Assembly (NCBI RefSeq): GCF_900232105.1
Contig: NZ_LT934425.1
Span: forward strand, 3,810,001 to 3,842,000
DNA: 32,000 nt
DNA from: Candidatus Kuenenia stuttgartensis
Lineage (GTDB): Bacteria; Planctomycetota; Brocadiia; Brocadiales; Brocadiaceae
Reading direction: 5' to 3'
The notes beneath the pieces are model-generated. The model saw only the letters and a list, made by a program, of their open reading frames with translations, ran no database searches and was not told the origin of the DNA. Position numbers and translations under genes: made by a program. Shown here piece by piece: positions 3,001-18,007 of this stretch (positions are counted from its first letter, which is position 1; every line of letters starts with the position of its first letter).

Positions 3001-3888
3001 CAGCCATGGAAAATTACCTATTCTTTTCATCGTGGCGGGCAAACATTCTTATGGGATGACAAAGAGGTAAGCAAAAGCGATGATGGAAATCACCCTTTGG
3101 TATATATGACTTTGGGGGGGCACGGGTGTTGGAACAAACCTGGAAATCACAAGTGGTATCAAGAACCTGCAACGTGCATGGATTGTACTGATGAGACAGC
3201 TGATAATGGTGACGTATTACATCCGGATACTATGTCTAATGCTGAAATTGATGAAATAAAAACGAGTACAAAAAAATATGCTTATGTAATTGAAGACATG
3301 ACTGATTGGACAGAGGAAAATCAAGATTGGATATATTGGAAAGGGTACTGGGGAAAGCAGACTAAAAAGAAAATGAATAACAAAAGAGATTACGATATTA
3401 TATACGGGTATAATTCCGGTCCCTCAAGTCCGCCCTACATTGATTACATAGATGATGAAATAGGTGGTCGTTGGGAAAAACCAATATTGTGGGCAACAAG
3501 TCCTAAGCCATCAGATTATGAAATTTGTGCTTCTTCCAATATCAAAATTATTGCCCATGATATAGAGGGTAATGTTTCGAACCTTTTGGATAATTGTTCG
3601 TTTGATACTTCTTGTGGTGGATGCGCAACCATTAAAATATTGTATTCAGAAAAGGACCAGATATTTGAAGTCTATTCCCTCGACGGCGAAGAAGTAACCC
3701 TGAAAATCAGCAGATACAACAGGAATACAAAGGAAGTGTGCGAAGTGGAATTTGACTGGCTTGAAATTCCCAGGAACGGCAAGGCAACACTTAGATTTTC
3801 TCCAGATGAAAACCCAAATCTTGAAATGGAAATTGACCACGACCTTAATGGAATTTTTGATTATCGTGTATCGCCAAATTATGTATAG
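1..3888 (+). CDS. Secreted SBBP beta-propeller repeat protein, paralog 1 (5' end outside window) with Vps62/DUF946-like C-terminal module
   Basis: Frame 1 is open from nt 1. VFTVSAILFLIVFSIPSLIASHE is the signal-peptide core; nt 1-188 are identical to paralog 2 (5683-5870), whose ATG lies 21 nt (7 codons) upstream of the equivalent point. There are seven ~66-aa repeats LLASTYLGGS..D.G.SLALDTSGNVYVTG.T.S.DFPTTSGAYDTS...DVFVSKL (SBBP signature). A Pro/Thr linker spans ~2455-2525. The C-terminal KYAPILYMH...YWFFYVYN...HEGDWEMIQI...HPLVYMTLGGHG resembles the Vps62/DUF946 family; the domain call is from memory and no HMM was run. Confidence 0.85.
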   Translation, partial: VFTVSAILFLIVFSIPSLIASHENSNKQSFKSSIPQSTIQNLSSTSTGDPKLDSAAFAQKTKKLQIPFLANNGQVDEQVKFYANTFGGTVFVTKDGEIVYSLPNNSSDVETQCLASSMRSPNGIHNAKCKIQNTRNMSNTTNRLSCILHHESNIPYCTNCLLACLAKHTGRDTQGVAIKETLVGGRVQEITGNEKAVTKVSYFKGTDKSQWKTNISAYDVVSLGEVYDGIELKLKAYGNNVEKLFCVKPDANPEQIQVKLSGVIDLRVNNEGQLVAETKLGAVKFTKPVAYQEINGRRVDVECKYTIADCGMQNAECKTNLKSETRNLSSTEIGDPQLEYGFTVASYDCTKDLIIDPLLASTYVGGSSSGDFGNSLALDTSGNVYVTGWTYSSDFPTTSGAYDTSFNGYMDVFVSKLNSGLTSLLASTYLGGSGGESGYSLTLDTSGNVYVMGYTGSTDFPTTSGAYDTSYNGGNYYGDVFVSKLDSGLTSLLASTYLGGSNDDIGNSLALDTSGNVYVTGNTSSSDFPTTSGAHDTSLNGGYYDVFVSKLDGGLTRLLASTYLGGSADDYGKSLALDTSGNVYVTGNTPSTDFPTTNGAYDTSFNSGSAVFISKLDGGLTSLLASTFLGGFGDDRGYSLSLDTSGNVYVTGLAGPNFPTTSGAYDTTFNGGYAAFVSKLDGGLTSLLASTFLGGSSEAWGYSLSLDTSGRVYVTGFTTSTDFPTTSGAYDTSFNGGYDVFVSKLNNGLTGLLASTYLGGSDYDFGNSLILDTSGHVYVTGSTGSTGFPTTSSAYDTSHNGGSYNVFVSKLDGNLSASAATTPTPSPTPSPAPTPSPTTSPEEENLLEKYAPILYMHSKERLHPTNVKVMLENSELYEKICKKEKKDGTCKKYKGEQVDTKDKKLTTDLLMNDYNMDDYNDDNYYYLQLKKKAEKKAKKEEWKERQTVYGRKFISEEDKTKTVLQYWFFYVYNDWSGSYEGGNKHEGDWEMIQIILDSNKQPWKITYSFHRGGQTFLWDDKEVSKSDDGNHPLVYMTLGGHGCWNKPGNHKWYQEPATCMDCTDETADNGDVLHPDTMSNAEIDEIKTSTKKYAYVIEDMTDWTEENQDWIYWKGYWGKQTKKKMNNKRDYDIIYGYNSGPSSPPYIDYIDDEIGGRWEKPILWATSPKPSDYEICASSNIKIIAHDIEGNVSNLLDNCSFDTSCGGCATIKILYSEKDQIFEVYSLDGEEVTLKISRYNRNTKEVCEVEFDWLEIPRNGKATLRFSPDENPNLEMEIDHDLNGIFDYRVSPNYV
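1072..2450 (+). repeat. Seven tandem coding repeats (~198-204 bp) = SBBP blades of paralog 1
   Basis: The recurrent DNA block ctgctggcatccacgta...gacacaagcgggaacgtatatgtgacgggg...gtctttgtctcgaagctg occurs at 1072, 1270, 1474 and onward. Confidence 0.9.
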
Positions 3889-4031
3889 TTCAGATAAATA
3901 ATAACCAGAAATTTAAATTAACAGGTCTAATGCCTTTATTAACACGTGTTTTCCCTTTACAGTCAGGAAAAGGAAGATTGAAGGGTAAACGTTACGGCAT
4001 TGCTTTTTGTTTGTCATTTTTAATACTTATC

Positions 4032-4181
4032 GGGAGCATTCCCGATTTTTTGTAAAAATGTCATTAGCAGGGGGGAGGGGAAGAATAGTAACTCAAGCTT
4101 CCAGCTTGAGGGTAAAACACCACAAGCAGGATGCTTGTGGTACAATGTACAATTAGTTAACCAAAAATCGGGAATGCTCCT
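4032..4181. repeat. MITE-like element sharing only its ~20-bp termini with the 141-bp MITE at 17336-17476
   Basis: The left end is gggagcattcccgattttttgt (4032-4053). The right end is accaaaaatcgggaatgctcc (to ~4180), its imperfect reverse complement. The core holds two hairpins (ctcaagcttccagcttgag; ccacaagcaggatgcttgtgg). No clear TSD, so this is probably an older copy. Confidence 0.5.
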
Positions 4182-4219
4182 GTTCAAACCATGTCCCCCG
4201 CTGGCGGGGGTGCAGGGGG

Positions 4220-5603
4220 CATAAGCGCTAACTTGTTTTAGGTATGCTCGAAGTATTTTGATATCTGTGTTTTTCGGATTCTTGTATTTTCTGCTAAAGA
4301 ACAAGCAATGTCATTCCAGCACTTAAGAACTTCCTGTAATGATAACGCTGGTTCTATAGCCCGTTTTACTTGATTAAGCATAAAAGCAAATTCACGCCAT
4401 TTGCTTTTAGTCTTCTTGCTTGACAATGAAGTATCCCCAGGGGGAAAAAGACGTAGCAAAATCTATTAGTTTTTCTGTCAAAAGAGCAACGAATAGTTTG
4501 CCATAAAGCCAAGCTTTTGAGCTATCATCATCGTATTTAGGTAAGTGTCCAAATTGTGCTATTTGTTTAAATCTTTTAAAGACCAGTTCAATTTGCCATC
4601 GAACTCGATACCATTCTAAGATATCAAAAGCGGTAAATTGATTTTCAGGAAACGTTGTGAATACTATTACGTACTTGGCATAAATAAGGGTCTCCGGTTT
4701 TAGTTCAATGCCCTTTTTGCTTGCATGTCTTTTAAGTTTTTTATGAGCTATTTTAATGGCTTCTTCTGTTTTGTGTATTATACAAAGACGACCTTTGACA
4801 TATTCAGTATTATCAACGTTTGGAATAAAAACGTTCCATGATTTTATAGCAAGGGGTCTTTTTAAATATTGGATTTCTTTCAATAAAGGAAAGGGTTTCT
4901 TTTCTTCGCCGAATATCCGTAGAGATTGCGAATTAACTCTAACGCTAAGATAAGCGCCTTTCCTTGTTGCATGATGAATTCCTTGGCCAGTACAGTAACC
5001 TCTGTCAGCTATAATATAATCATCTTTTTTCATCGGAAACTGCCGAAAAGATTCTCCTGTGCCTTCTCCTTCAGTTCCCGTAAGTTTAAAGAAATCGCAA
5101 GATAATGAAGGAACCTCAATACTATAATGAATGCGCCAAAGACTTCCTGTTTTCCCAGGTTCCTTTACTGTTGTTGCATCAAATAAGCGAAGATGAAAAT
5201 TATTCCGTTTATTAATTTGGAGGCCACGCTCACGGAATAAAGATAAACATAATTTATATAGCCATTCTTTGCTCTTTTTTAATCGCTTTAATAAGGCAAC
5301 ATCGGATAAATCTGCTAAGTTAGCACGCTTGGCTAGAACTACTGTTTCACGCAATGAATAGCCACATCCTAAATGAATTAATAATGTTCGAAGAAGCTTT
5401 TCTTCAGATTTATCCTTGCGCAAGCCTTTTAAAGCATTTGTATCAACGGCTAAACTTTTCCAATCGTTTGGGAAGAAAGTTCTTAGAAGATCCCAATCTT
5501 CTCTCATCATGGCTTTATCCTCCTATAGAGTGATTAGCGGGATAATTAACATAAAAATACCATGATGAATAAAATTTGTCAATAAAACAAGTTAGCGCTT
5601 ATG
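4220..5603 (-). mobile_element. Intact IS4-family insertion sequence (1,384 bp)
   Basis: It has perfect 21-bp terminal inverted repeats: CATAAGCGCTAACTTGTTTTA at 4220-4240 and its reverse complement at 5583-5603. It is flanked by an 11-bp direct repeat GGTGCAGGGGG (4209-4219 and 5604-5614), read as the target-site duplication. It carries a single transposase ORF. Confidence 0.92.
4407..5510 (-). CDS. IS4-family DDE transposase
   Basis: 367 aa. It contains IADRGY and the C-terminal YRVRWQIELVFKRFK, which matches the Y-2-R-3-E-6-K signature of IS4-type transposases. Confidence 0.9.
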   Translation of the reverse strand: MMREDWDLLRTFFPNDWKSLAVDTNALKGLRKDKSEEKLLRTLLIHLGCGYSLRETVVLAKRANLADLSDVALLKRLKKSKEWLYKLCLSLFRERGLQINKRNNFHLRLFDATTVKEPGKTGSLWRIHYSIEVPSLSCDFFKLTGTEGEGTGESFRQFPMKKDDYIIADRGYCTGQGIHHATRKGAYLSVRVNSQSLRIFGEEKKPFPLLKEIQYLKRPLAIKSWNVFIPNVDNTEYVKGRLCIIHKTEEAIKIAHKKLKRHASKKGIELKPETLIYAKYVIVFTTFPENQFTAFDILEWYRVRWQIELVFKRFKQIAQFGHLPKYDDDSSKAWLYGKLFVALLTEKLIDFATSFSPWGYFIVKQED

Positions 5604-5661
5604 GGTGCAGGGGGTGGACTGGATTTCTCCATCGATACAACTACCAATTCCGGAGGCTGCC

Positions 5662-8600
5662 ATGATACAAAGAAATTGTGTTGTTTTTACAGTATCAGCA
5701 ATTCTTTTTCTGATAGTATTTTCCATCCCATCGTTGATAGCAAGCCATGAAAACTCAAATAAACAATCATTCAAAAGCTCAATTCCGCAATCTACAATCC
5801 AAAACTTGTCCTCGACTTCGACCGGGGATCCGAAATTAGACTCGGCGGCATTTGCCCAGAAAACAAAGAAGCTTCAAATACCCTTTATAGCCAACAACGG
5901 ACAGGTAGATGAACAGGTGAAATTCTATGCCAATACATTTGGCGGGACGGTGTTCGTGACAAAAGACGGCGAGATTGTGTATGCGTTGCCGAATAATAGT
6001 TCAGAGTCGGGAGTTCGATGTTCGAAGAATCAAGAGGCAAAATGCATGATTCAGGGTCCACGAAACATGTCAAATACCACAAATCGTTTATCGTGCATCT
6101 TGCATCATGAAGCAAACATCCCATATTGTACCAATTGTCTTTTAGCTGGCATTGCTAAGAATATCGGTCAAGACACCCAGGGAGTTGCCATTAAAGAGAC
6201 GCTTGTAGGTGGCAGAGTTCATGAGATAACTGGAAATGAAAAGGCTGTAACAAAGGTGAGCTATTTTAAGGGAAATGACACATCTCAATGGAAAACCAAT
6301 ATTTCAGCATATGATGTAGTATCGCTTGGTGAAGTCTACGACGGTATAGAACTCAAATTAAAGGCGTATGGAAATAATGTCGAGAAGCTTTTTTGTGTAA
6401 AACCAGATGCAAACCCCGATCAAATACAGGTAAAGCTCAGTGGTGCAAAAGATTTGCGTGTAAATGACGAAGGGCAGCTTGAAGCAGAAACGGAATTGGG
6501 GATGGTTAAGTTTACAAAACCCATAGCATATCAGGAAATCGATGGGAATCGGGTGGCGGTAGATGTTGAATACGACATTCAGAATCCAGAAGTCGGGAGA
6601 CGGAATCAAAAAATTCCAAATTGGAAATCAGCAAGCTACAATAAAACACGGACAAAAAAGTTTGTCCATTCCACCCATAAACACAATCCAAATTCTGAAA
6701 TCCAAAATCCAAAATTGGAGTACGGCTTCAAAGTCGCCTCTTACGACAAAACATATGAACTAATCATCGACCCCCTACTAGCCTCCACATACCTAGGCGG
6801 GTCTGATAATGATTATGTTTATTCCCTTGCCCTCGATACGAGCGGGAATGTATATGTGACGGGGTATACCAAGTCATCAAACTTTCCTACGACGAGCGGG
6901 GCATATGATACCTCTTTTACTGGTGGTAATTATCAGGAACATGTCTTTGTCTCGAAGCTGGACGGTGGATTAACGAGCCTGCTGGCATCCACGTTCCTGG
7001 GCGGGTCTGATTATAATTGTGGTTATTCTCTAGCCCTCGACACAAGCGGGAATGTATATGTGACGGGGAAGACCGGGTCATCAGACTTTCCTACGACGAG
7101 CGGGGCATATGATACCTCTTTTACTGGTGGTAATTATCAGGAACATGTCTTTGTCTCGAAGCTGGACGGTGGATTAACGAGCCTGCTGGCATCCACGTTC
7201 CTGGGAGGGTCTGGTCAGGATTATGGTTATTCCCTCGCCCTCGACACGAGCGGGAATGTATATGTGACGGGGTATACTATGTCATCAGACTTTCCGACGA
7301 CGAGTGGGGCATATGATACCTCTCAAACTGGTTCTTCTGATGTCTTTGTCTCGAAGCTGAACAGTGGATTAACGAGCCTGCTGGCATCCACGTACCTGGG
7401 CGGGTCTAGTGATGATTATGGTTATTCCCTCGCCCTCGATACGAGCGGGAATGTATATGTGACGGGGTATACTAAGTCATCAGACTTTCCGACGATGAGT
7501 GGGGCATATGATACATCTTTGAGTCAAACTGGTTCTCATGATGTCTTTGTCTCGAAGCTGAACAGTGGATTAACGAGCCTGCTGGCATCCACGTACCTGG
7601 GCGAGCCTGGTTATAATGAGGGTCGTTCTCTTGCCCTCGACACGAGCGGGAATGTATATGTGACGGGGTATACTATGTCACCACTCTTTCCGACTACGAG
7701 CGGGGCATATGACACCTCTTATAATTATGGTTATGATGTCTTTGTATCTAAGCTGGACGGTGGATTAACGAGCCTGCTGGCATCCACGTATCTGGGCGGG
7801 CTTAGTGATGATTATGGTTATTCCCTCGCCCTCGACACGAACGGGAATGTGTATGTGACGGGGCAAACTGAGTCATCACGCTTTCCGACTACGAGGGGTG
7901 CATATGATACTTCCGATAGTGATGATTCTGATGTCTTTGTCTCGAAGCTGAACAGTGGATTAACGAGCCTGCTGGCATCCACGTACCTGGGCGGGTCTAA
8001 TGATGATGAGGGTTATTCTCTCGTCCTAGACACAAGCGGGAATGTATATGTAACGGGTTGGACTAGCGGAGGAGGCTTTCCGACTACGAGTGGGGCATAT
8101 GATACCTCTTATTATTATGGTTATGATGTCTTTGTATCTAAGCTGGACGGCAATCTTTCTGCCACATCAGCAACACCAACACCAACACCAACACCAACAC
8201 CAACACCAACACCAACTCCAACTACGTGTACTGACAGCTACGAGCCTAACAACAGTACGTCTGAAGCTTACGGACCTTTGCGTTCTGGATCGAGTTACAG
8301 TGGCAAGATTTGCTCGGATAGTGACGTGGATTGGTTTAAGGTGAATATAACAATCGAAGGTACAATATCACTGTCCTTAACGGTTCCGTCTTCCAATGAT
8401 TATGAATTAGAGCTGTATGATGCTTCTTATGCGAAAATCGTCAGTTCTACTAATGGGAGTGGTGTGAGCGAGTCGATTGACTACGATGCCACTTCAACGG
8501 GAAATTACTATATCAAGATATACGGATTCAGTGGCTCATCGAATACTACAAATTCATATACACTCACCTATACGTATACGTCTAAGACAACACCAACCCC

Positions 8601-8910
8601 TACAACAACGCTTACTCCAGGTGGTCACACTGCTGCCTTATCTGTAAGTCCGTCAGAAGTATCTCTATATGATTCTGTTGTAGTAACAGTCGTGGATTGG
8701 GATTTAAATACAACCAGTAGCTATGCCGATACTGGAAATGTGAGAATTAAATCAAATTCAGATACAACAGGCTTCTATCTTGGGTTAATGGAAATGAATG
8801 TGAACTCTGGCAGTTTTAAGGGTACATTCGTGACGGGCGATACGACAGACTTGTCTGCATCTCCTCGAAAAATAGGTGTTGGAGTAAATGATACTATAAC
8901 TGTGTCTTAG
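5662..8910 (+). CDS. SBBP beta-propeller repeat protein, paralog 2, 5' portion (truncated by MITE-created stop); includes PPC (pre-peptidase C-terminal)-like domain
   Basis: ATG 5662 is preferred over the track start 5605: GGAGG lies at 5652-5656 and the product starts MIQRNCVVFTVSAILFLIVFSIPSLIA, a signal peptide. There are seven SBBP blades (6775-8160) and a (TP)n linker. CTDSYEPNNS...DVDWFKV...YYIKIYGFSG is PPC-like, followed by an Ig-like module. The stop TAG 8908-8910 is built from the target TA plus the first G of the inserted element. Confidence 0.85.
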   Translation: MIQRNCVVFTVSAILFLIVFSIPSLIASHENSNKQSFKSSIPQSTIQNLSSTSTGDPKLDSAAFAQKTKKLQIPFIANNGQVDEQVKFYANTFGGTVFVTKDGEIVYALPNNSSESGVRCSKNQEAKCMIQGPRNMSNTTNRLSCILHHEANIPYCTNCLLAGIAKNIGQDTQGVAIKETLVGGRVHEITGNEKAVTKVSYFKGNDTSQWKTNISAYDVVSLGEVYDGIELKLKAYGNNVEKLFCVKPDANPDQIQVKLSGAKDLRVNDEGQLEAETELGMVKFTKPIAYQEIDGNRVAVDVEYDIQNPEVGRRNQKIPNWKSASYNKTRTKKFVHSTHKHNPNSEIQNPKLEYGFKVASYDKTYELIIDPLLASTYLGGSDNDYVYSLALDTSGNVYVTGYTKSSNFPTTSGAYDTSFTGGNYQEHVFVSKLDGGLTSLLASTFLGGSDYNCGYSLALDTSGNVYVTGKTGSSDFPTTSGAYDTSFTGGNYQEHVFVSKLDGGLTSLLASTFLGGSGQDYGYSLALDTSGNVYVTGYTMSSDFPTTSGAYDTSQTGSSDVFVSKLNSGLTSLLASTYLGGSSDDYGYSLALDTSGNVYVTGYTKSSDFPTMSGAYDTSLSQTGSHDVFVSKLNSGLTSLLASTYLGEPGYNEGRSLALDTSGNVYVTGYTMSPLFPTTSGAYDTSYNYGYDVFVSKLDGGLTSLLASTYLGGLSDDYGYSLALDTNGNVYVTGQTESSRFPTTRGAYDTSDSDDSDVFVSKLNSGLTSLLASTYLGGSNDDEGYSLVLDTSGNVYVTGWTSGGGFPTTSGAYDTSYYYGYDVFVSKLDGNLSATSATPTPTPTPTPTPTPTPTTCTDSYEPNNSTSEAYGPLRSGSSYSGKICSDSDVDWFKVNITIEGTISLSLTVPSSNDYELELYDASYAKIVSSTNGSGVSESIDYDATSTGNYYIKIYGFSGSSNTTNSYTLTYTYTSKTTPTPTTTLTPGGHTAALSVSPSEVSLYDSVVVTVVDWDLNTTSSYADTGNVRIKSNSDTTGFYLGLMEMNVNSGSFKGTFVTGDTTDLSASPRKIGVGVNDTITVS
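6775..8160 (+). repeat. Seven tandem SBBP blade repeats of paralog 2
   Basis: Same ~198-bp coding unit as 1072-2450. Blocks 6905-7085 and 7085-7265 are nearly identical at the DNA level. Confidence 0.9.
8171..8212 (+). repeat. (CAACAC)7 hexanucleotide microsatellite encoding a (TP)n linker
   Basis: Seven perfect CAACAC units read directly. The unit length is a multiple of 3, so copy-number change keeps the frame. Confidence 0.9.
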
Positions 8911-9008
8911 GCACTGTAAATAAATAAAGGTATCAAGTAGATCAATTTCATGCTCTGGAAACATGCAATCAAGGCTTCAAAGTGAGACGTTAATTTATTT
9001 ACAGCGCC
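8910..9008 (+). mobile_element. 99-bp MITE, copy 1 (TIR GGCRCTGTAAATAAAT, TSD TTA)
   Basis: The termini GGCACTGTAAATAAAT...ATTTATTTACAGCGCC are inverted. TTA is duplicated at 8907-8909 and 9009-9011. The sequence is the exact reverse complement of 14170-14268 (99/99, checked base by base). Confidence 0.85.
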
Positions 9009-9387
9009 TTACTCAGATAATCTAGATGCTGATGGTAATAGCACAACAATAACAAATACGGTTTCAGTAACGGGTACAACTGGAACACCAACCCCTACAA
9101 CAACGACAGAACCAAAGGTTGCGGCAGGGGATTCACACACCCTTGCCCTAAAGTATGACGGCACAGTCTGGACATGGGGACATAATGGGGATGGGCAATT
9201 AGGGGATGGAACATTTACCAACAGGACTACTCCTGTTCAGGTAAACGACCTCAGTGACGTCATTGCCATTGATGGTGGACAGCATCATCACAGCCTTGCA
9301 GTAAAATCGGATGGTACCGTATGGGCGTGGGGGCATAATGATGATGGTCATCTGGGAGATAGAACGTACACAAACAGAAGTTCCCCC

Positions 9388-10521
9388 GTGAAGGTAACTG
9401 ATCTCAGTGGTGCTATCGCAGTTGCTGGTGGAGATTCACACAGTCTAGCCTTGAAATCAGATGGTACCGTATGGGCGTGGGGAGCGAACTGGTATGGACA
9501 ATTAGGAGATGGTACAACCGCAGACAGCACTACACCTGTTCAGGTAAGTAACCTCAGCGATGTTATTGCCATTGCTGGGGGTGATAATCACAGCCTTGCT
9601 TTAAAGTACGATGGTACTGTCTGGGCATGGGGTGAAAATGCTTATGGTAAATTGGGAGACGAGACAGAAACGAATAGAACTGCACCCGTGCAGGTAGGCA
9701 GCCTCAGCAATGTTAATGCCATAGCAGTTGGCGACCAGCACAGTCTGGCACTAAAATCAGACGGCACGGTCTGGGCATGGGGAAATAACGAAGGCGGTCA
9801 ATTGGGAGACGGAACAACTACAAATAGAAATACACCCATACAAGTGAATTTCTACGGCCAGTATATTACTACGATCGCGGCTGGATATAAGCATAACCTT
9901 GCTGTGGATTCAGAAGGTTATGCTTGGGCGTGGGGGTATGGTTGGGATGGTCAGTTGGGAGACGGGGCTAACGCAGATAGCTACATTCCTGTGCAAGTGA
10001 TAGGACTTCGCTTTGTTACGGCCATTGTAGCTGGCGATTGGCATAGCATTGCCGTGAAGTCAGACGGCACGGTCTGGGCATGGGGGTATAATGGGGATGG
10101 TGAACTGGGAGACGGTACAACCTCAAGCAGAAGCACCCCGGCTCAGGTTGATATTAATTTAGGTCAGGCATCAGATTGTGGCGAGACTAATATAATGAGC
10201 TGGTCTGCCGCCAAATTGAAAATTAAAAGAAAGAAAAGTAAAGATATAACCATAACAGCCGCTCAAGGTGATGTGATAGAAGATGATAATACCATTTTTA
10301 AATGTCCCGTTGAAGGCCTGACGGTTACTGCAGTTGTTGATAGTAAAACTGAAGGAAAGAAGCTCATATCGGTTTCACCAACAAGCGCTGTAACTGATGA
10401 AAACGGTGATGTGACGTTCACGATAAAAGCCAAGAATAAAAAGGGAAATGCAAAGGTCTATTTTTCAATAGAAGAATGGGGTGAGTGGGTAACTACGGAA
10501 TTATCAGTAAAGGTAAGGTAA
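9388..10521 (+). CDS. RCC1-repeat (7 blades) plus Ig-like domain; orphaned 3' portion of SBBP paralog 2
   Basis: The track ORF starts at GTG 9388, but the same frame is open and homologous from 9010 (YSDNLDADGNSTTITNTVSVTG..., with the first RCC1 blade at ~9118). There are seven repeats of G(D)xHSLALKSDGTVWAWGxNxxGQLGDG. This is the same frame (frame 1) as 5662-8910, and no plausible start/RBS exists near 9010. Confidence 0.8.
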   Translation: MKVTDLSGAIAVAGGDSHSLALKSDGTVWAWGANWYGQLGDGTTADSTTPVQVSNLSDVIAIAGGDNHSLALKYDGTVWAWGENAYGKLGDETETNRTAPVQVGSLSNVNAIAVGDQHSLALKSDGTVWAWGNNEGGQLGDGTTTNRNTPIQVNFYGQYITTIAAGYKHNLAVDSEGYAWAWGYGWDGQLGDGANADSYIPVQVIGLRFVTAIVAGDWHSIAVKSDGTVWAWGYNGDGELGDGTTSSRSTPAQVDINLGQASDCGETNIMSWSAAKLKIKRKKSKDITITAAQGDVIEDDNTIFKCPVEGLTVTAVVDSKTEGKKLISVSPTSAVTDENGDVTFTIKAKNKKGNAKVYFSIEEWGEWVTTELSVKVR

Positions 10522-10716
10522 CTAATCCATGATATTTGTAATACATATCGGATATAATTTTGACGTAGGAAAATTTTCTGCTATCGAGTGCAGTGAAATG
10601 AGGGAAGGATAAGGGAAATTTATTCGCACAGGTTTCATGGTATTTTTTAACTTGTCAATTCATCTTAAAAAAGAAGGGGAAAAAGCCATGAAAAGAATTG
10701 CTTATAAAATGGTGGG

Positions 10717-10788
10717 TGAATTAGGGGACACTTCCCATATTTCTTGATTGATCTGGTGGAATAATAAGGGAAGTGTCCCTATATTTCT
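10717..10788. repeat. Hairpin repeat unit 1 (GGGGACACTTCCC-N31-GGGAAGTGTCCC)
   Basis: The arms at 10723-10735 and 10767-10778 are reverse complements. The unit shares GAATTAGGG.ACAC...CCCATATTTCTT...TGGTGG..AATAAGGGA...CCTATATTTC with unit 3. Confidence 0.7.
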
Positions 10789-10975
10789 CGGAGAGGGCGA
10801 AATCTGTAATCGTATAAGTAGAAAGAGAAAAACGGTAGAACTATGCGGTGTCGTCGGAGTTAAGAGTGACGGTATGACTGTAAAAGGTATATAAATGAAC
10901 TTGGGATGTCTAATTATTCAGGTTGATGACCGTAACGCAACAAGGAATTGTTACGGCTAATAGGGATAACTTCAG

Positions 10976-11041
10976 TATTGAGACACTTCCCGTATTTCAG
11001 AAGTTAATCTGGGAAGTGTCCCTCTATTCCCCCTCTATTCC
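10976..11041. repeat. Hairpin repeat unit 2 (GAGACACTTCCC-N19-GGGAAGTGTCCC)
   Basis: The arms lie at 10980-10991 and 11011-11022. The tail CCCTCTATTC is duplicated in tandem (11021-11041). Confidence 0.65.
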
Positions 11042-11092
11042 CTATAGTTAAAGGGAATATTAAGTGAACTTCGGCGGGAATAAATTATTGGA

Positions 11093-11168
11093 GAATTAGG
11101 GACACAGCCCATATTTCTTACTTTATTTGGTGGGGAAATAAGGGATATTTCCTATATTTCTATATTTT
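11093..11168. repeat. Hairpin repeat unit 3 (degenerate copy)
   Basis: The sequence is GAATTAGGGACACAGCCCATATTTCTT...TTTGGTGGGGAAATAAGGGATATTTCCTATATTTC. The arms have diverged, so stem pairing is largely lost. Confidence 0.55.
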
Positions 11169-11243
11169 AGAATAAATGTTTAAGGCTGATCTGCAGCAAA
11201 CAAAGGGAAAATCCATAAACCACATACATAACAGGAGGCTATA

Positions 11244-14183
11244 ATGCTAATAAAACATCCTTTAAAGAAAAGGCTTATTAAATCTGTTTTGTTATTAATG
11301 GGACTGGTAATAGCGCTAACCCTTTACCCATTGACCAAAAACAACTCAAACCTTGCTAATGATCAGGATATAGTCAGCAATTCAAATATCCTATACCTCT
11401 CAACTATCAATCCTGGTAAGGATTGGCAGACTACCATAAGCATTACAAACTCAGAATGTAAATGCAAACAGAGAAGGGTTAACGCAACGCTTACCGCATA
11501 CGACAAAGATGGTTTATCCCTTGAGGTTATTAAAAACGTTATTAGGCTTAGAGCAAATAAAACAAAGACCTTTCATTCTCAAACATTACCCACCGATGCT
11601 GAATCCTTAAGGGTTGAGTCAAATGGCAGCATTATATGCAATGCAATTTTCAAAACACGTGATGGCACAAAATCAGAGGTAGTCCCTGCCATCAAAGAAT
11701 CATCCAGACAGCTCGATTTCCCGGCGCTGCTCAGTTACGATGACCTCTATATATACAAGACCATTACCCTTTTAAACCCAAACACAAACCCCGCAAGTAT
11801 TGATATTGTAGCCTTGGATAAGGACGGATATGAGATAGACCTTAATGATTTACCATCCCTTTCGTCAATGGAAAGCAAAACCTTCTCCCTCGTGGATATC
11901 TTTGACCCAAGAATATTAAAAGACCTGTCAACGGTGAGGGTCAATTCAGATAGTAATATTATTGGACTTCAGCTTGTGGACTATCCCGCGGTTGACCTTG
12001 TTGGGCTTCCGGCCCTGACCACCACCAGCAAGGGCTGGACGTTTCCAATAGCAACCAAAGGAGAAAACTTCGATTTGTGGACAAAAGTGGGTATTTTAAA
12101 TCCTTGTAATAACATAGCCAATGTTATCATTGAGGCATTTGATACCAGCAGTAACTCACTGGGGATTATCCATAGTCAAACCATTTTGCCGGGTGTAACC
12201 TATGTTATCAATACCGCTAATATTGATACTATCGAGGGAGATGCCATACCTTCAAATACCGCTATTCTCAAGATCACTTCTACCCAGTCTGTAATTGGGT
12301 ATGAAGTCATTGGTGTTCTAAATGGCAGCGGTCTTTCAGCAGTTATGGGGATTCCTGACGAAGACCAAACTTCGGTGGGATTTGAGCTAATCGGTTCAAT
12401 GGACGGAGAGGTGCTTAATACCTATTCAATGATGCGGATGGGCGATGGGAGCGTGAAGTCAACGGTTGGGAGTTTGGGGAGTGAAGAATGGAGAAAAAAT
12501 GTAAACATAATACCCGACACCTCAGAAATAATCTCTGCACCAACAGCAGTCAGTGAAATAAATGAAAATGAATGTGTTCCTCCAAAACAACTTAATTCAA
12601 AATACTGGCTGGGATTTCCACTTAAATACCCGCCTTCTAAAAACTGGACTCCATACACTGCCAATATAACCAGTGTTTTTGACCATGCTATGAAAACACT
12701 GGATGGAAAGAATCATGTGGTGGCATATACGGGGGAAGGAGGTTCTAAGAAAGCAGATGGTACATGTGATAAAAATGGTAATGGATGCGGTTATAAGAAA
12801 AGCGATGAAAGCCCATTTATTATAAACAATCATTATGTAGGCGTTAAATCGTCCGGCAGCGCAACGGTTTTACAGTACGATGATCATCGGGGATACGATT
12901 ACCCTGTTAGAGAAGAGCGTGTCTATGCTGCGGCTGATGGATGTGTTCATAAGGCACAATGGGATAAGGAAAATGGTGTGGAAAATGGTGGTGGTTATTA
13001 TATAAAGATAAAGCATAACACAAGCAATGGTGTCTACTATACTAGTTATCTCCATTTAAAAAAAGATTCTTTTCGGGTGGGTAAGGGTGACACTGTGACG
13101 GCAGGACAATGGATTGCCGTATCAGGTAATACAAGTACAAGTACAAGTGGCGAAACATTCCCCTATCACCTTCATTTCGAAGTGAGAAAAACTTATGATC
13201 TACAAGGGAATGTTGTTGACCCCTATGGCTGGCATCCATCGGTAAAAACTGATGATCCATACACAGGAAAAAAGAAAGAAACCCTTTGGGAGGCGGCAAC
13301 TGAACTTCCACAAATTACCTCAATAAGTCCTTCAAGTGAAGGTGCTGGCACTTCAGTAACGATAACGGGCAAGAGATTTGGTGCTGGAGCAGGTACGGTA
13401 AAATTTGGTACGGTAAAAGCCGAGGTCACTTCATGGGGTGATACTGAAATAGTTGCGACTGTGCCTGATGGTAATGGAGAAGTATATGTAAGGGTGACAA
13501 CTGCCGGAGAAGAAACAGCAGTAACAAGCACAGGAGATGATGATGAAGAGAAATATGTATTTACATACACATCATCACCAACTACTTGTATTGCGACAGT
13601 TTCTTCAGGTCAGTGGAAGGGAGAATACTACAACAACAAGGATTTAAGCGGCAGTCCAGTCATGACAAGGGACGATGGAAGCGGGAATCTCAATTTCGAC
13701 TGGGGTAGTGGTAGTCCAAATAGCTCTAGCCCTTGTGTCATAGGCACTGATGATTTTTCCGTTCGCTGGACGAGGACGGTTTCTTTCGATGCAAACACCT
13801 ATCGTTTCAAGGTAACGTGTGACGATGGTTTCAGACTTTACATAGATGGCATTTCGAAGCTTGAGAAATGGATCGATCAAGGCTCAACAGAGTACACGGT
13901 GGATGTATCACTTTCGTCAGGGAAACACACTATAAAACTGGAGTACTATGAGGCTGGCGGGGGCGCAGTTGCGAAACTATCATGGGAGGTGGCATCATCT
14001 ACAATTTCCGTTACTTCTTTTAAAATCAACAACGATGCATCCAGCACAACGAGTCGGACGGTAACGCTGAATAATATGGCAACGGGTAGTCCTACACAAT
14101 ATATGGCAAGTGAATCATCCAGTTTTAGCGACGCCAGTTGGCAGACGTACTCAGTGAGTCCAAGCTTTAGGCGCTGTAAATAA
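11244..14183 (+). CDS. Secreted multidomain M23 metallopeptidase / IPT-TIG / PA14 protein, 5' portion (truncated by MITE)
   Basis: AGGAGG lies 6 nt upstream of the ATG, and there is an N-terminal hydrophobic anchor. An approximately threefold ~110-aa N-terminal module is followed by M23 motifs HRGYD (HxxxD) and YHLHFE (HxH). The IPT/TIG-like segment is ITSISPSSEGAGTSVTITGKRFG. The first PA14 domain is QWKGEYYNN...DDFSVRWTRT...KLEYYEAGGGAVAKLSWE. The ORF ends 4 codons into the MITE (RRCK*). Confidence 0.85.
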   Translation: MLIKHPLKKRLIKSVLLLMGLVIALTLYPLTKNNSNLANDQDIVSNSNILYLSTINPGKDWQTTISITNSECKCKQRRVNATLTAYDKDGLSLEVIKNVIRLRANKTKTFHSQTLPTDAESLRVESNGSIICNAIFKTRDGTKSEVVPAIKESSRQLDFPALLSYDDLYIYKTITLLNPNTNPASIDIVALDKDGYEIDLNDLPSLSSMESKTFSLVDIFDPRILKDLSTVRVNSDSNIIGLQLVDYPAVDLVGLPALTTTSKGWTFPIATKGENFDLWTKVGILNPCNNIANVIIEAFDTSSNSLGIIHSQTILPGVTYVINTANIDTIEGDAIPSNTAILKITSTQSVIGYEVIGVLNGSGLSAVMGIPDEDQTSVGFELIGSMDGEVLNTYSMMRMGDGSVKSTVGSLGSEEWRKNVNIIPDTSEIISAPTAVSEINENECVPPKQLNSKYWLGFPLKYPPSKNWTPYTANITSVFDHAMKTLDGKNHVVAYTGEGGSKKADGTCDKNGNGCGYKKSDESPFIINNHYVGVKSSGSATVLQYDDHRGYDYPVREERVYAAADGCVHKAQWDKENGVENGGGYYIKIKHNTSNGVYYTSYLHLKKDSFRVGKGDTVTAGQWIAVSGNTSTSTSGETFPYHLHFEVRKTYDLQGNVVDPYGWHPSVKTDDPYTGKKKETLWEAATELPQITSISPSSEGAGTSVTITGKRFGAGAGTVKFGTVKAEVTSWGDTEIVATVPDGNGEVYVRVTTAGEETAVTSTGDDDEEKYVFTYTSSPTTCIATVSSGQWKGEYYNNKDLSGSPVMTRDDGSGNLNFDWGSGSPNSSSPCVIGTDDFSVRWTRTVSFDANTYRFKVTCDDGFRLYIDGISKLEKWIDQGSTEYTVDVSLSSGKHTIKLEYYEAGGGAVAKLSWEVASSTISVTSFKINNDASSTTSRTVTLNNMATGSPTQYMASESSSFSDASWQTYSVSPSFRRCK

Positions 14184-14268
14184 ATTAACGTCTCACTTTG
14201 AAGCCTTGATTGCATGTTTCCAGAGCATGAAATTGATCTACTTGATACCTTTATTTATTTACAGTGCC
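14170..14268 (-). mobile_element. 99-bp MITE, copy 2 (inverted relative to copy 1)
   Basis: It is the exact reverse complement of 8910-9008. TTA is duplicated at 14167-14169 and 14269-14271. Confidence 0.85.
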
Positions 14269-16529
14269 TTACCTTGAGTTCAGGTAATGGAAATAAGACC
14301 GTATACTTTAAGGTTAAAAACAGTGCTAATACTGAATCATCAGTGGTGAGTGACAGTATTACCCTGAGTGAGTCTACTTCCTGCACTGCGGCAGTTTCTT
14401 CAGGTCAGTGGAAGGGGGAATACTACAACAATAAGAATTTAAGCGGCAGTCCAGTCATGACAAGAGACGATGGAAGCAGGAATCTCAATTTCGATTGGGG
14501 CAGCGGAAGTCCAAGCAGTTCGTGTGGTATAAATAGTGACGATTTCTCAGTTCGCTGGACGAGGACGGTTTCTTTCGATGCCAACACCTATCGCTTCACG
14601 GTAACGTGTGATGATGGTTTCAGACTTTACATAGATGGCATTTCGAAGCTTGAGAAATGGATCGATCAAGGCTCAACAGAGTACACGGTGGATGTATCAC
14701 TTTCGTCAGGAGATCACACTATAAAACTGGAGTACTATGAGGCTGGCGGGGGCGCAGTTGCCAAACTATCCTGGGAGAAAGTATCCAGCAATTCCTGCAC
14801 AGCCACAGTCTCTTCAGACCGATGGAAGGGAGAATATTACAACAACAAGGATTTAAGCGGCAGTCCAGTCATGACAAGAGACGATGGAAGCGGGAATCTC
14901 AATTTCGACTGGGGTAGCGGAAGTCCAAGCAGTTCGTGTGGTATAAATAGTGACGATTTCTCAGTTCGCTGGACGAGGACGGTTTCTTTCGATGCCAACA
15001 CCTATCGCTTCACGGTAACGTGTGATGATGGTTTCAGACTTTACATAGATGGCATTTCGAAGCTTGAGAAATGGATCGATCAAGGCTCAACAGAGTACAC
15101 GGTGGATGTATCACTTTCGTCAGGGAATTACACCATAAAAATGGAGTACTATGAAGCTGATGGGGGCGCTGTCGCGAAACTATCATGGGAGGTGGCATCA
15201 TCTGGTAGTGTGCCTGGCAGCATTACCGACCTTACAGCAACGCCTGAGTGTGATGGCACTGCGTCTCAGGTACGGCTGAACTGGTCTGCGGCAAGTAACG
15301 CAACCTCGTATGACGTCTACCGCAACGGCAGTTTGTATTACAGTGGGGTATCAGGGACACAATTCATAAATAGTTCCAATATTACAACTGGAATGTCTTA
15401 TTCTTACTACGTTCAGGCCAAGAACTCTTATGGTTTTACTAACTCCAATACTGTTTCTGCAACGGCAATAACTTGTGTCAGCAATATGCCTGGCAGCATT
15501 ACTGACCTTACGGCCACAGCTGAGTGTGATGGTACAACTTCTCAGATACGGCTGAACTGGTCTGCGGCAAGTAACGCAACCTCGTATGATGTCTACCGCA
15601 ACGGCAGTTTGTATTACAGTGGGGTATCAGGGACACAATTCATAAATAGTTCCAATATTACAACTGGAATATCTTATTCTTACTACGTTCAGGCCAAGAA
15701 CTCTTATGGTTCTACCAACTCCAATACTGTTTCTGCAACGGCAATAACTTGTGTCAGCAATATGCCTGGCAGCATTACTGACCTTACGGCCACAGCTGAG
15801 TGTGATGGCACAACTTCTCAGATACGGCTGAATTGGTCTGCTGCAAGCAATGCAACCTCGTATGATGTCTACCGCAACGGCAGTTTGTATTACAGTGGGG
15901 TATCAGTGACACAGTTCATCAATAGTTCCAATATTACAACGGGAACGTCTTATTCTTACCATGTCCAGGCCAAGAACTCTTATGGTTCTACTAACTCCAA
16001 TACTGTTTCGGCAACGGCGAAAACTTGCGGCGGGTCTACCAGTCAATCAGAGCGCATTACTAACGGCAGCTTTTCTTCCGGTACAAGCGGATGGACGCTA
16101 TCGAGTGATTTTTGGGCAGGCACAAATCTTTCTAACTATCGCACCTCACCGGGCTATGCAGCGGGAGGCGTAGACAGTAGTGGAACGCCAAAAAACAATG
16201 CGTATGGTTCCATGTACCAAGCAGTAACTATCCCATCCAATGCAACTTCGGCCACTATCAGTTTTTGGTATAACATAACAACATCAAATGAATCAGGATA
16301 TGATGCGCTCTACACAGTTATCAAAAATTCTTCGGGGAGTCATTTAGCAACAGTTGCTACCTTCAGCAATGCCGATAAAGGAACATTAGGAAGTTACAGC
16401 AAAAAAAGCCTTGATGTAACCTCATACAAAGGGCAGACCGTCACAATATATTTTCTGGCAATGACTGATTCTGCTAATACTACGGTATTCAGAATTGACG
16501 ATGTCAGCCTTATGTCTGATGGAAATTAA
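14214..16529 (+). CDS. 3' portion of the M23/PA14 protein: 2x PA14, 3x FN3-like, C-terminal CBM/galactose-binding-like domain
   Basis: The track ATG 14214 lies inside the MITE and has no SD. Genuine coding sequence resumes at 14272 (TLSSGNGNKTVYFKVKN) in the same frame (frame 3) as 11244-14183. There are two PA14 copies, three 92-aa repeats PGSITDLTATAECDGT..IRLNWSAASNATSYDVYRNG, and a terminal NGSFSSGTSGW...VFRIDDVSL jelly-roll-like domain. Confidence 0.8.
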   Translation: MFPEHEIDLLDTFIYLQCLTLSSGNGNKTVYFKVKNSANTESSVVSDSITLSESTSCTAAVSSGQWKGEYYNNKNLSGSPVMTRDDGSRNLNFDWGSGSPSSSCGINSDDFSVRWTRTVSFDANTYRFTVTCDDGFRLYIDGISKLEKWIDQGSTEYTVDVSLSSGDHTIKLEYYEAGGGAVAKLSWEKVSSNSCTATVSSDRWKGEYYNNKDLSGSPVMTRDDGSGNLNFDWGSGSPSSSCGINSDDFSVRWTRTVSFDANTYRFTVTCDDGFRLYIDGISKLEKWIDQGSTEYTVDVSLSSGNYTIKMEYYEADGGAVAKLSWEVASSGSVPGSITDLTATPECDGTASQVRLNWSAASNATSYDVYRNGSLYYSGVSGTQFINSSNITTGMSYSYYVQAKNSYGFTNSNTVSATAITCVSNMPGSITDLTATAECDGTTSQIRLNWSAASNATSYDVYRNGSLYYSGVSGTQFINSSNITTGISYSYYVQAKNSYGSTNSNTVSATAITCVSNMPGSITDLTATAECDGTTSQIRLNWSAASNATSYDVYRNGSLYYSGVSVTQFINSSNITTGTSYSYHVQAKNSYGSTNSNTVSATAKTCGGSTSQSERITNGSFSSGTSGWTLSSDFWAGTNLSNYRTSPGYAAGGVDSSGTPKNNAYGSMYQAVTIPSNATSATISFWYNITTSNESGYDALYTVIKNSSGSHLATVATFSNADKGTLGSYSKKSLDVTSYKGQTVTIYFLAMTDSANTTVFRIDDVSLMSDGN
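14382..15209 (+). repeat. Two tandem 414-bp PA14-coding repeats (third, more distant copy at ~13587-14000)
   Basis: Copies start at tgcac... 14382 and 14796. Long stretches are identical, for example gatgatggtttcagactttacatagatggcatttcgaagcttgagaaatggatcgatcaaggctcaacagagtacacggtggatgtatcactttcgtcagg. Confidence 0.9.
15212..16039 (+). repeat. Three tandem 276-bp FN3-like coding repeats
   Basis: gcctggcagcattac starts at 15212, 15488 and 15764, giving a period of exactly 276 bp. Copies 2 and 3 are nearly identical. Confidence 0.9.
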
Positions 16530-16615: not shown

Positions 16616-16917
16616 CAAAAGGGGTTACACCTTGATTAGTGATTTAATTTCTTCTAATCGTTTATTAATTTCATTTTCTTCAGATATCTTTGATTTCATA
16701 ATAGTTACTCGCCAACTTATGGAAGAATAACCAAGACCAAACAAATTCCCGATTTCCTGGTTATTAAAAATATTCCTTCGCTCATTTTCTCGTGATAAGA
16801 TGTGATAGTAAGCCACTTCAAATTCTATGCGCCATTGTCTTGTCATGTCAGACAAGATAGCAAAATTACCTTCTATTGCCAACAGCATAATCACTAATCA
16901 AGGTGTGACCCCTTTTG
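16616..16917. mobile_element. ~300-bp element bounded by 27-bp inverted repeats, enclosing a deleted RayT/IS200-like ORF
   Basis: The left arm CAAAAGGGGTTACACCTTGATTAGTGA (16616-16642) and right arm TCACTAATCAAGGTGTGACCCCTTTTG (16891-16917) pair at 26/27. A partial extra copy of the outer arm (AATGAACAAAAGGGGT) sits directly in tandem at 16592-16607. Confidence 0.6.
16625..16846 (-). pseudogene. Internally deleted Y1 (IS200-like / REP-associated, RayT-type) transposase remnant
   Basis: MTRQWRIEFEVAYYHILSRENERRNIF matches the conserved N-terminus of RayT-like proteins (xRxxRIExxGAxYHVxxRGNxRxxIF). It joins directly to a C-terminal HTH-like tail (EIGNLFGLGYSSISWRV). The catalytic HUH/Tyr core is absent. 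Family recognition is from memory only. Confidence 0.5.
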
Positions 16918-17186: not shown

Positions 17187-18007
17187 ATGATTACAAAACA
17201 AGACTATATTTTATATTTGTTGATCTTGCTTGTCCTTTTTGAAGGTTGTGCAAAAAGATATCCTCTTGGCACGAAAGAAGAACAATGGCAAGCCTTGAGC
17301 CCACAACAGCAGGCGGAACATACTACAAAGCAATAGGGTGCATTCCCGATTTTTTGTGACTTCCGCCATGTTTTAATAAAACGTACAGTAGTGTTAACCC
17401 TGACAGGGTTTCAAACCCTGTCAGGGTTGTTTTGCCCCGACTCCATGAACGCTTACAAAAAATCGGGAATGCTCCCAAGCAATATCAGATAGACGAAGAA
17501 AGAAGAAAAAGGCAGGAAGAATACCGGCAGCAAAAAGAAAGAGAAGATGCAGAGGCGATAAGATTAGAAAAGGAACGCATTTTACAGCTTTATAGGAATG
17601 CGCGTTACGGCGATATTATTCAGGTGAACATATCTGGAGGCAGCATTGCCTTTATCGGAGAAAGAAAAGGTTACGAACCTTTGTCCTTCGATCTGGTGAG
17701 AGGCGAGAGGAAAAGGATTCCATTCTATCACCACGATAAACAAATAACCTATCAAACAGACATCTGGGTAGCGTATGACAACAACGCCTTTTATTTTGAT
17801 GTTGGAGATGACCAGAAATATGAACAGAGTACAGATAAGATAGTTATTTTAGATAATGGACGCTGGGATGAAGGGAAGACATATCGCCCAAAAACACTCG
17901 ATAAGAGCACCTATAGTCAGGCGCATGGCATAAAGGTTTTTATACGGTATAAACTATTGCCCGGTATGCAACGAAAAGGGGCGTATCATTATTACCCGCC
18001 TCAATGA
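17187..18007 (+). pseudogene. Small lipoprotein/signal-anchored protein gene split by a 141-bp MITE
   Basis: The 5' ORF 17187-17336 encodes MITKQDYILYLLILLVLFEGCAKRY...AEHTTKQ*, with the TAG formed at the junction. The 3' ORF is the track 17432-18007. Removing the element plus one TSD copy (149 bp) restores the frame: ...TTKQ-YQIDEERRKRQEE... Confidence 0.7.
17336..17476. mobile_element. 141-bp MITE (22-bp TIR GGGWGCATTCCCGATTTTTTGT, 8-bp TSD AAGCAATA)
   Basis: TIRs lie at 17336-17357 and 17455-17476 (21/22 match). AAGCAATA is duplicated at 17328-17335 and 17477-17484. The core has a perfect hairpin, aaccctgacagggtttcaaaccctgtcagggtt. Confidence 0.8.

Follow-up and report, generated by a model that had tools for sequence, protein, structure and literature searches.

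A 99-bp MITE, very probably derived from an ISAzo13-family insertion sequence, splits a secreted-protein gene in Candidatus Kuenenia stuttgartiensis

The element described here occupies positions 14170-14268 of a 32,000-nucleotide stretch of DNA from Candidatus Kuenenia stuttgartiensis (contig NZ_LT934425.1, positions 3,810,001 to 3,842,000; hereafter the window). It is very probably a 99-bp miniature inverted-repeat transposable element (MITE) that arose from an insertion sequence (IS) of the ISAzo13 family by internal deletion and was recently inserted, splitting the gene for a secreted protein of 1,727 aa. The element is a MITE in that it is short and non-coding, carries inverted repeats, has a verified target duplication, is present in multiple copies and has ends homologous to those of an IS. 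Gene-splitting MITEs are already well known; the ISAzo13-derived MITE is new and is documented unusually cleanly. The literature searched contains no account of a link between MITEs and ISAzo13, nor of MITEs in Kuenenia. With its filled and empty alleles, the element is a clean case of MITE activity in an anammox bacterium with transposase-rich genomes, and it ties a MITE to the little-studied ISAzo13 family.

The window contains two copies of the element. Copy 2, the subject of this analysis, is the reverse complement of copy 1 (8910-9008). An earlier reading made without database searches (the sequence-only reading) had reported an identity of 99/99 and TTA duplications at the ends, and direct comparison of the copies confirmed both. 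A repeat finder gives a match length of 101 nt because the flanking A and T also pair. The terminal inverted repeats of both copies have 26-nt arms that are complementary at 22 of 26 positions. TTA brackets both copies on the plus strand; read in the orientation of the element, the triplet is TTA for copy 2 and TAA for copy 1 (Table 1). The 16-nt terminal motif has four exact matches in the window and one unrelated match with 3 mismatches, and 0.65 matches at up to 3 mismatches are expected by chance. A perfect match of 99 nt by chance within 32 kb is excluded. Six-frame translation of the element results in a longest stop-free run of 35 codons and no transposase. The transcribed element is predicted to fold into a long hairpin (-32.6 kcal/mol, z -6.6), for which covariation across five element variants only amounts to one compensatory pair. 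Neither copy has a covariance-model match in Rfam at E <= 1, and there is no sigma-70-like promoter or terminator consensus within or beside the element.

Comparison with other Kuenenia assemblies identifies both filled and empty alleles at the two sites. Both insertions are found at the same positions in three more assemblies (GCA_027493735.1, GCA_900232175.1 and GCA_020063645.1); therefore, they are not an assembly error. The same insertion is present in the closed PacBio genome of 4,406,153 bp (MBR1, PMC5854607). Two further assemblies, GCA_022180985.1 (contig L057) and GCA_048500235.1 (contig L060), are empty at both positions and have a single TTA at each. With a slash at the insertion point, the empty sequence is ...AGCTTTA/CCTTGAG... 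at the position of copy 2 and ...GTGTCTTA/CTCAGAT... at the position of copy 1. The filled allele exceeds the empty one by exactly 102 nt, which is 99 + 3. These sites bear out the claim of the sequence-only reading that a MITE had inserted with a 3-bp TTA duplication, and the comparison of strains for presence or absence that it had put forward separates filled from empty alleles at both sites. Across 5662-8906, 9012-14166 and 14272-16529, the filled haplotypes match the window with 100% identity, and the empty haplotypes have 6-9, 1-2 and 4 substitutions in these segments, respectively, the middle one being the 5,155 bp that separate the copies. Since the filled haplotypes are identical and the empty ones have a few substitutions of their own, the insertions arose on one very young haplotype, in agreement with the very recent transposition that had been claimed. 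The substitutions held by the empty haplotypes also mean that these are sister lineages and not excision revertants. The possibility that the two inverted copies are the ends of a composite transposon was considered and rejected, since the empty strains are collinear over the intervening 5.2 kb and lack the copies individually.

The open reading frames (ORFs) at 11244-14183 and 14214-16529 lie in one common reading frame. The upstream ORF terminates at a TAA five codons inside copy 2, and its protein is truncated after residue 974, with RRCK and a stop appended. In-silico deletion of 14170-14271 (the element and one TTA) results in a 1,727-aa ORF with the junction ...YSVSPSF-TLSSGNGNK... and with an M23 peptidase domain, an IPT/TIG domain, three PA14 domains and three FN3-like domains. 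A protein search with this excised product returned GJQ47880.1 (P0001), a 1,727-aa protein of the metagenome-assembled genome (MAG) HKUEN01, at 100% identity and 100% coverage; its contig is the empty L057. The junction is also spanned by P0152, P0154 and P0155, of which the last two are partial proteins on other contigs. Excision therefore restores a single gene as had been proposed, with a length of 1,727 aa where about 1,728 had been given. The split module, which the sequence-only reading had taken to be Ig-like, has no match in Pfam, and a single-sequence AF2 model (pLDDT 47.7) gives an all-beta pattern only.

The two halves of this gene have entered the databases as separate proteins of Kuenenia stuttgartiensis. 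The 979-aa product is identical to SOH06010.1/WP_099326530.1 and the 771-aa product to SOH06011.1/WP_099326531.1 (P0156). The latter begins with MFPEHEIDLLDTFIYLQCL (MFPEHEIDLL...), and its 19 N-terminal residues derive from the element. The sequence-only reading had foreseen a spurious N-terminus in the annotation, with the ATG at 14214 inside the MITE and no Shine-Dalgarno sequence ahead of it; the public record has this N-terminus, and both features of the start codon are found in the sequence. The product of the 3' fragment has no signal peptide. The 771-aa downstream 'gene' is an annotation artefact, and its product, if made, would lack a signal peptide and start within a broken domain. 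The 979-aa and 771-aa public records, including the RefSeq WP_ entries, are thus two halves of a single 1,727-aa surface protein. A MITE copy likewise interrupts the adjacent SBBP/RCC1 gene in MBR1-type strains; with copy 1 deleted, the DUF7948/SBBP/RCC1 ORF measures 1,604 aa when read from the GTG at 5605. In comparative, proteomic and structural studies of anammox surface proteins, both genes should be counted as disrupted in MBR1-type strains.

The parentage of the element is indicated by the ISAzo13 family. A scan for the 19-nt terminal motif in one genome per species resulted in 53 loci. It gave no Kuenenia locus, the copies of the window included; therefore, nothing about Kuenenia is inferred from it. 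Approximately 30 of the 53 loci have the extended repeat (...AAAGGTATCA) with a TTA/TAA flank, many of them at contig ends, and belong to Proteobacteria, Nitrospirota, Acidobacteriota, Verrucomicrobiota, Zixibacteria and Planctomycetota. Four are complete elements of 1,293-1,297 bp (L003, L045, L053 and L006) that encode a 403-aa transposase, which is frameshifted in L006. The transposase matches Pfam PF07592, the 'Rhodopirellula transposase DDE domain', with E 1e-137 in L003 and E 1.5e-136 in L045, and the L003 protein matches the NCBIfam ISAzo13 model (NF033519) with E 8e-176 and 585 bits against a cut-off of 200. Approximately nt 1-62 of the MITE are collinear with the left end of these IS; this part comprises the repeat, a leader hairpin (ATGYT...AGCAT) and the transposase start codon. 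Collinearity with the right end covers the last ~30 nt (nt ~70-99). The annotated ATG at 14214 belongs to the 5' arm of this hairpin. The parental start codon is at 14227, where the MITE aligns with the ATG/GTG start of the transposase ORFs in L003, L045, L053 and L006. TTA or TAA precedes 38 of 42 distinct element ends, 19 times each, and position -4 is preferentially C/G; 3-bp duplications have been described for the ISAzo13 family and for its eukaryotic relative Zator (PMC10045372).

The MITE has in common with the 1,293-bp/403-aa subfamily the outer 16-19 nt of both repeats, the left leader with its hairpin and start codon, the right end, the TTA/TAA target and the 3-bp duplication. It differs from the full-length elements in that ~1,190 bp are deleted and the transposase gene is missing; a transposase of the PF07592/NF033519 type lies between the same ends in the relatives, not in the MITE itself. 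The inner part of the left repeat also differs, being TTAACGTCTCA in the MITE and AAAGGTATCA at both ends of the sampled full-length elements, and no full-length partner of the MITE has been found so far in Kuenenia. According to the literature, Zator transposons have a related DDE transposase lineage and 3-bp duplications (PMC10045372, PMC5718144), but they are eukaryotic and autonomous. Other deletion derivatives of the ISAzo13 subfamily have lengths of 153, 160, 448 and 494 bp (L002, L023, L051 at 4730-5176, and L017, respectively). The 448-bp derivative encodes a 127-aa ORF in which N-terminal and C-terminal parts are fused, and the 494-bp derivative consists of MITE ends with unrelated cargo.

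The 403-aa transposase subfamily is extremely abundant and little diverged in metagenomes, where most matches are on ~1.3-kb contigs. A protein search with this transposase gave at least 8,000 matches, of which the best 120 are all environmental sequences of at least 87% identity, with no Kuenenia-named sequence among them. This suggests a recent, wide horizontal spread of the subfamily. The terminal motif has no match in viral contigs, and plasmids hold no match to the MITE and only distant (~65%) ISAzo13 relatives.

Four other MAGs, which belong to Brocadiaceae (L028), Sulfuricella (L036) and Gammaproteobacteria (L012 and L050), contain elements of 99-100 nt that share the architecture and the left inner repeat of the MITE. 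Identity is 80-90% both among these elements and with the Kuenenia copy, and they are apparently intergenic. A metagenome scan identified two more copies, L058 and L059. L058 is a Kuenenia contig, since the proteins that it encodes are identical to Kuenenia proteins. Its copy (6830) lies exactly at the stop codon of recG, where the first G of the element recreates TAG. The recG site was compared in ten fetched Kuenenia contigs (L061-L070, at ~6390), of which six are filled and four are empty. Five filled contigs are 99/99 identical to the window element (L061 of strain CSTR1, CP049055.1, and L064, L065, L066 and L067), and L065 belongs to GCA_048500235.1, an assembly that is empty at the window sites. 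The filled-empty difference relative to L062, L068, L069 and L070 is again exactly 102 nt. In L063 (GCA_014584675.1, 6390-6490) the recG copy is without its last 2-3 nt and ~200 bp of adjoining DNA, which looks like a deletion beginning at the element end. The L059 copy has one mismatch and truncates a 614-aa ORF with a signal peptide. In the same region of L061-L070 (~6500-6650), 3' of recG, the number of copies in two heptamer tandem arrays, (GAGGACT)n and (CTGACCT)n, differs between assemblies.

Four sites are known across Kuenenia, and the copies differ by 0-1. The three sites with comparison alleles (the two in the window and recG) are polymorphic among genomes that are >99% identical. 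Transposition in Kuenenia is recent; since there are further polymorphic sites and near-identical copies, the element has been recently active. The four sites are ready strain markers for tracking Kuenenia populations in reactors.

The proposed mechanism begins with an internal deletion in an ISAzo13-family IS, which would have produced a 99-bp MITE that retains two ~26-nt inverted repeats, ~35 nt of the IS leader with its hairpin and start codon, and a few bases directly ahead of the right repeat. The retained parts would be those recognised by the transposase. An ISAzo13-type DDE transposase probably bound the GGCRCTGTAAATAAAT ends of the element in trans, and a 3-bp staggered cut at TTA would then have duplicated this triplet upon insertion. 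The insertion lies in the middle of the gene for a secreted multidomain protein in MBR1-type strains of Candidatus Kuenenia stuttgartiensis; it truncates the upstream reading frame, and the annotated downstream 'gene' starts at the ATG of the IS leader. ISAzo13-family transposase genes have been listed for Kuenenia strains under group 9 (4-5 full copies) and group 26 (PMC7709395, Table S8).

Several results weigh against this origin. A full-length IS with the MITE-type left inner repeat is absent from every collection scanned. A tblastn search with the 403-aa transposase against ~430 kb of partly overlapping Kuenenia DNA found no ISAzo13 transposase, and the same DNA contains neither a further copy of the element nor a full-length element. 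The mobilising enzyme in the host is therefore one that we infer. The count of two copies for the MBR1 genome comes from the window only, and the fate of both gene fragments is deduced from the sequence. A wider scenario is also conceivable, in which one MITE lineage of 99-100 nt crossed phyla, is cross-mobilised in Kuenenia by a divergent resident ISAzo13 transposase without a cognate full-length IS, and took part with ISCku3, another IS in the window, in a burst that preferentially removed dispensable giant surface proteins in bioreactor lineages. This scenario is speculative and rather unlikely.

The ends of the element might also be explained by an IS630/Tc1-mariner-type MITE with a TA duplication. 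The core of the triplet is TA, and the NCBIfam IS630 model gives the related 403-aa transposase a weak secondary score (E 8e-12), although this is below the cut-off of that model, and the transposases with these ends clear the ISAzo13 cut-offs by a wide margin. A TA duplication would require an extra base at the right end in copy 2 and at the left end in copy 1, even though the two elements are identical, and it does not account for the exact difference of 102 = 99 + 3 nt between filled and empty alleles. Since two identical elements are found in TTA and TAA, only a 3-bp TWA duplication fits, and a parent of the IS630 type is extremely unlikely. The insertion could alternatively be an artefact of assembly or scaffolding, or the site a true boundary between two genes marked by a conserved palindrome of the terminator or repetitive extragenic palindrome (REP) type. 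The window does have short palindromic repeats where genes end. However, the identical insertion in the closed PacBio genome and in three other assemblies, the single uninterrupted gene in homologous strains, and the transposon ends, target duplication and homology to IS ends leave this explanation with a practically negligible probability, and the existence of filled and empty alleles refutes it.

It is very unlikely, too, that the element has been co-opted by its host, whether as a promoter or start codon for a separate functional 3' protein or as a reversible on/off switch that operates by precise excision. The ATG at 14214 shares the frame of the downstream ORF, and the MITE has kept the leader of the IS, where the transposase promoter of the parent must lie. 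Yet the element and its surroundings lack the promoter, terminator and Shine-Dalgarno signals looked for above, the 771-aa product would have no signal peptide and would start inside the split domain, and the ATG used differs from the parental start codon (14227, out of frame). Precise excision would also yield the exact empty alleles, but the empty haplotypes have substitutions of their own, as expected of sister lineages and not of revertants. An internally deleted ISAzo13-family element that interrupted an intact gene remains the preferred explanation.

The RUP elements of Streptococcus pneumoniae, derived from IS630-Spn1, and the Correia elements of Neisseria are classical IS-derived bacterial MITEs, with copy numbers from tens to hundreds and a TA target duplication. 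The Kuenenia MITE resembles them in its size of ~100 bp, its terminal inverted repeats, its short A/T-rich duplication and the long hairpin that it forms when transcribed, as well as in its near-identical copies, presence or absence among strains, gene splitting and misleading effect on annotation. In contrast, it derives from ISAzo13, has a 3-bp TWA duplication and has an apparently low copy number (2 in the window and 4 sites across Kuenenia assemblies), and the consensus scan did not indicate promoter or terminator activity. Rickettsia palindromic elements (RPE) insert in frame into protein genes. The MITE and its duplication are likewise a multiple of 3 (102 nt), and one of six frames is stop-free; therefore, some insertions could be tolerated as in-frame additions of 34 aa. 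Unlike in RPE, the host-gene frame here meets a stop after five codons, and no database protein with element-encoded peptides (in-frame 'exonised' copies) was found among cluster representatives. Selection for a translatable frame was considered and rejected, since the stop-free frame is kept in only part of the element variants.

Table 1. Coordinates of the MITE copies, the split gene and an associated insertion in the window (L057 and L060, contigs with empty sites; L003, L045 and L053, complete ISAzo13-type elements).
Feature	Position	Strand	Evidence or remark
MITE copy 2, 99 nt, IS left end first	14170..14268	+	Reverse complement of 8910-9008; absent in L057, L060
Target-site duplication of copy 2, left TTA	14167..14169	.	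Empty alleles hold a single TTA
Target-site duplication of copy 2, right TTA	14269..14271	.	Empty alleles hold a single TTA
Left terminal inverted repeat, GGCGCTGTAAATAAATTAACGTCTCA	14170..14195	+	Outer 16-19 nt common to full-length ISAzo13 elements of many phyla
Right terminal inverted repeat, reverse complement GGCACTGTAAATAAATAAAGGTATCA	14243..14268	+	~29/30 against right ends of L003, L045, L053
TAA, premature stop of upstream fragment, protein end ...SPSF-RRCK*	14181..14183	+	ORF map, excision
ATG, annotated start of the 771-aa 'gene', 5' arm of IS-derived leader hairpin	14214..14216	+	Alignment to IS left ends
Relic of parental transposase start codon, out of host-gene frame, 16-aa peptide MKLIYLIPLFIYSALP	14227..14229	+	
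MITE copy 1, 99 nt, opposite orientation	8910..9008	-	Splits DUF7948/SBBP/RCC1 gene
Target-site duplication of copy 1, TTA on + strand, TAA in element orientation	8907..8909	.	
Target-site duplication of copy 1, second TTA	9009..9011	.	
5' fragment, 979 aa: signal/anchor, unknown N-terminal region, peptidase M23, IPT/TIG, first PA14	11244..14183	+	
3' fragment: two PA14, three FN3-like repeats, C-terminal MAM-like region	14272..16529	+	
ISCku3 (IS4 family), unrelated third insertion in the same 10 kb	4220..5603	-	21-nt perfect inverted repeats

The two copies have interrupted neighbouring genes for giant surface proteins, for which the sequence-only reading had offered a target preference as one explanation. 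This is not supported; the target is TWA with a preference for C/G at -4, and the stop codon of recG harbours another copy. TWA triplets are ubiquitous, and the clustering is therefore not explained by target specificity. Plausible causes are local hopping or a relaxed constraint on variable surface proteins; such variability has been described in Kuenenia (PMC7709395). The other explanation offered was selection for loss of these proteins. HKUEN01, with intact genes and empty sites, is likewise from a planktonic membrane-bioreactor culture (PMC9530715). Therefore, there is no simple correlation of the loss with planktonic growth, and this one comparison argues against the simplest form of adaptive loss linked to it.

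ISCku3 directly precedes the SBBP/RCC1 gene and is flanked by an 11-bp duplication (GGTGCAGGGGG, 4209-4219 and 5604-5614). L057 lacks ISCku3 and contains the 11-mer only once. In L060, another ISCku3-like insert, riddled with indels, is found 23 bp farther downstream (between window positions 5637 and 5638); therefore, this spot was hit twice independently. Partial records named 'ISCku3 family transposase' and labelled Escherichia coli (MQS82308.1 and MQS95743.1) are on contigs of <1 kb, and their label is probably due to contamination or mislabelling.

The window also has other repeats and duplicated sequences. The first ORF (52-3888) and the SBBP/RCC1 gene (5605-8910) are paralogues with 5' parts that are 92-96% identical and C-terminal domains that differ, being Vps62-like in the former and RCC1 in the latter. 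This pattern fits the reported shuffling of surface-protein genes in Kuenenia. A 54-nt hairpin repeat (GGGACACTTCCC...GGGAAGTGTCC) has two copies between the split genes (10725-10778 and 11099-11152). A terminator-like palindrome, ATCGGGAGCATTCCCGATTTTTTGT, follows several genes in both orientations (4029-4053, 4157-4180, 17333-17357 and 17453-17508). Just 3' of the split gene, at 16616-16917, inverted repeats of 29 nt (97%) surround a minus-strand ORF of 87-89 aa. This feature is kept in the empty-site strains and may represent a further small unit of mobile or palindromic type.

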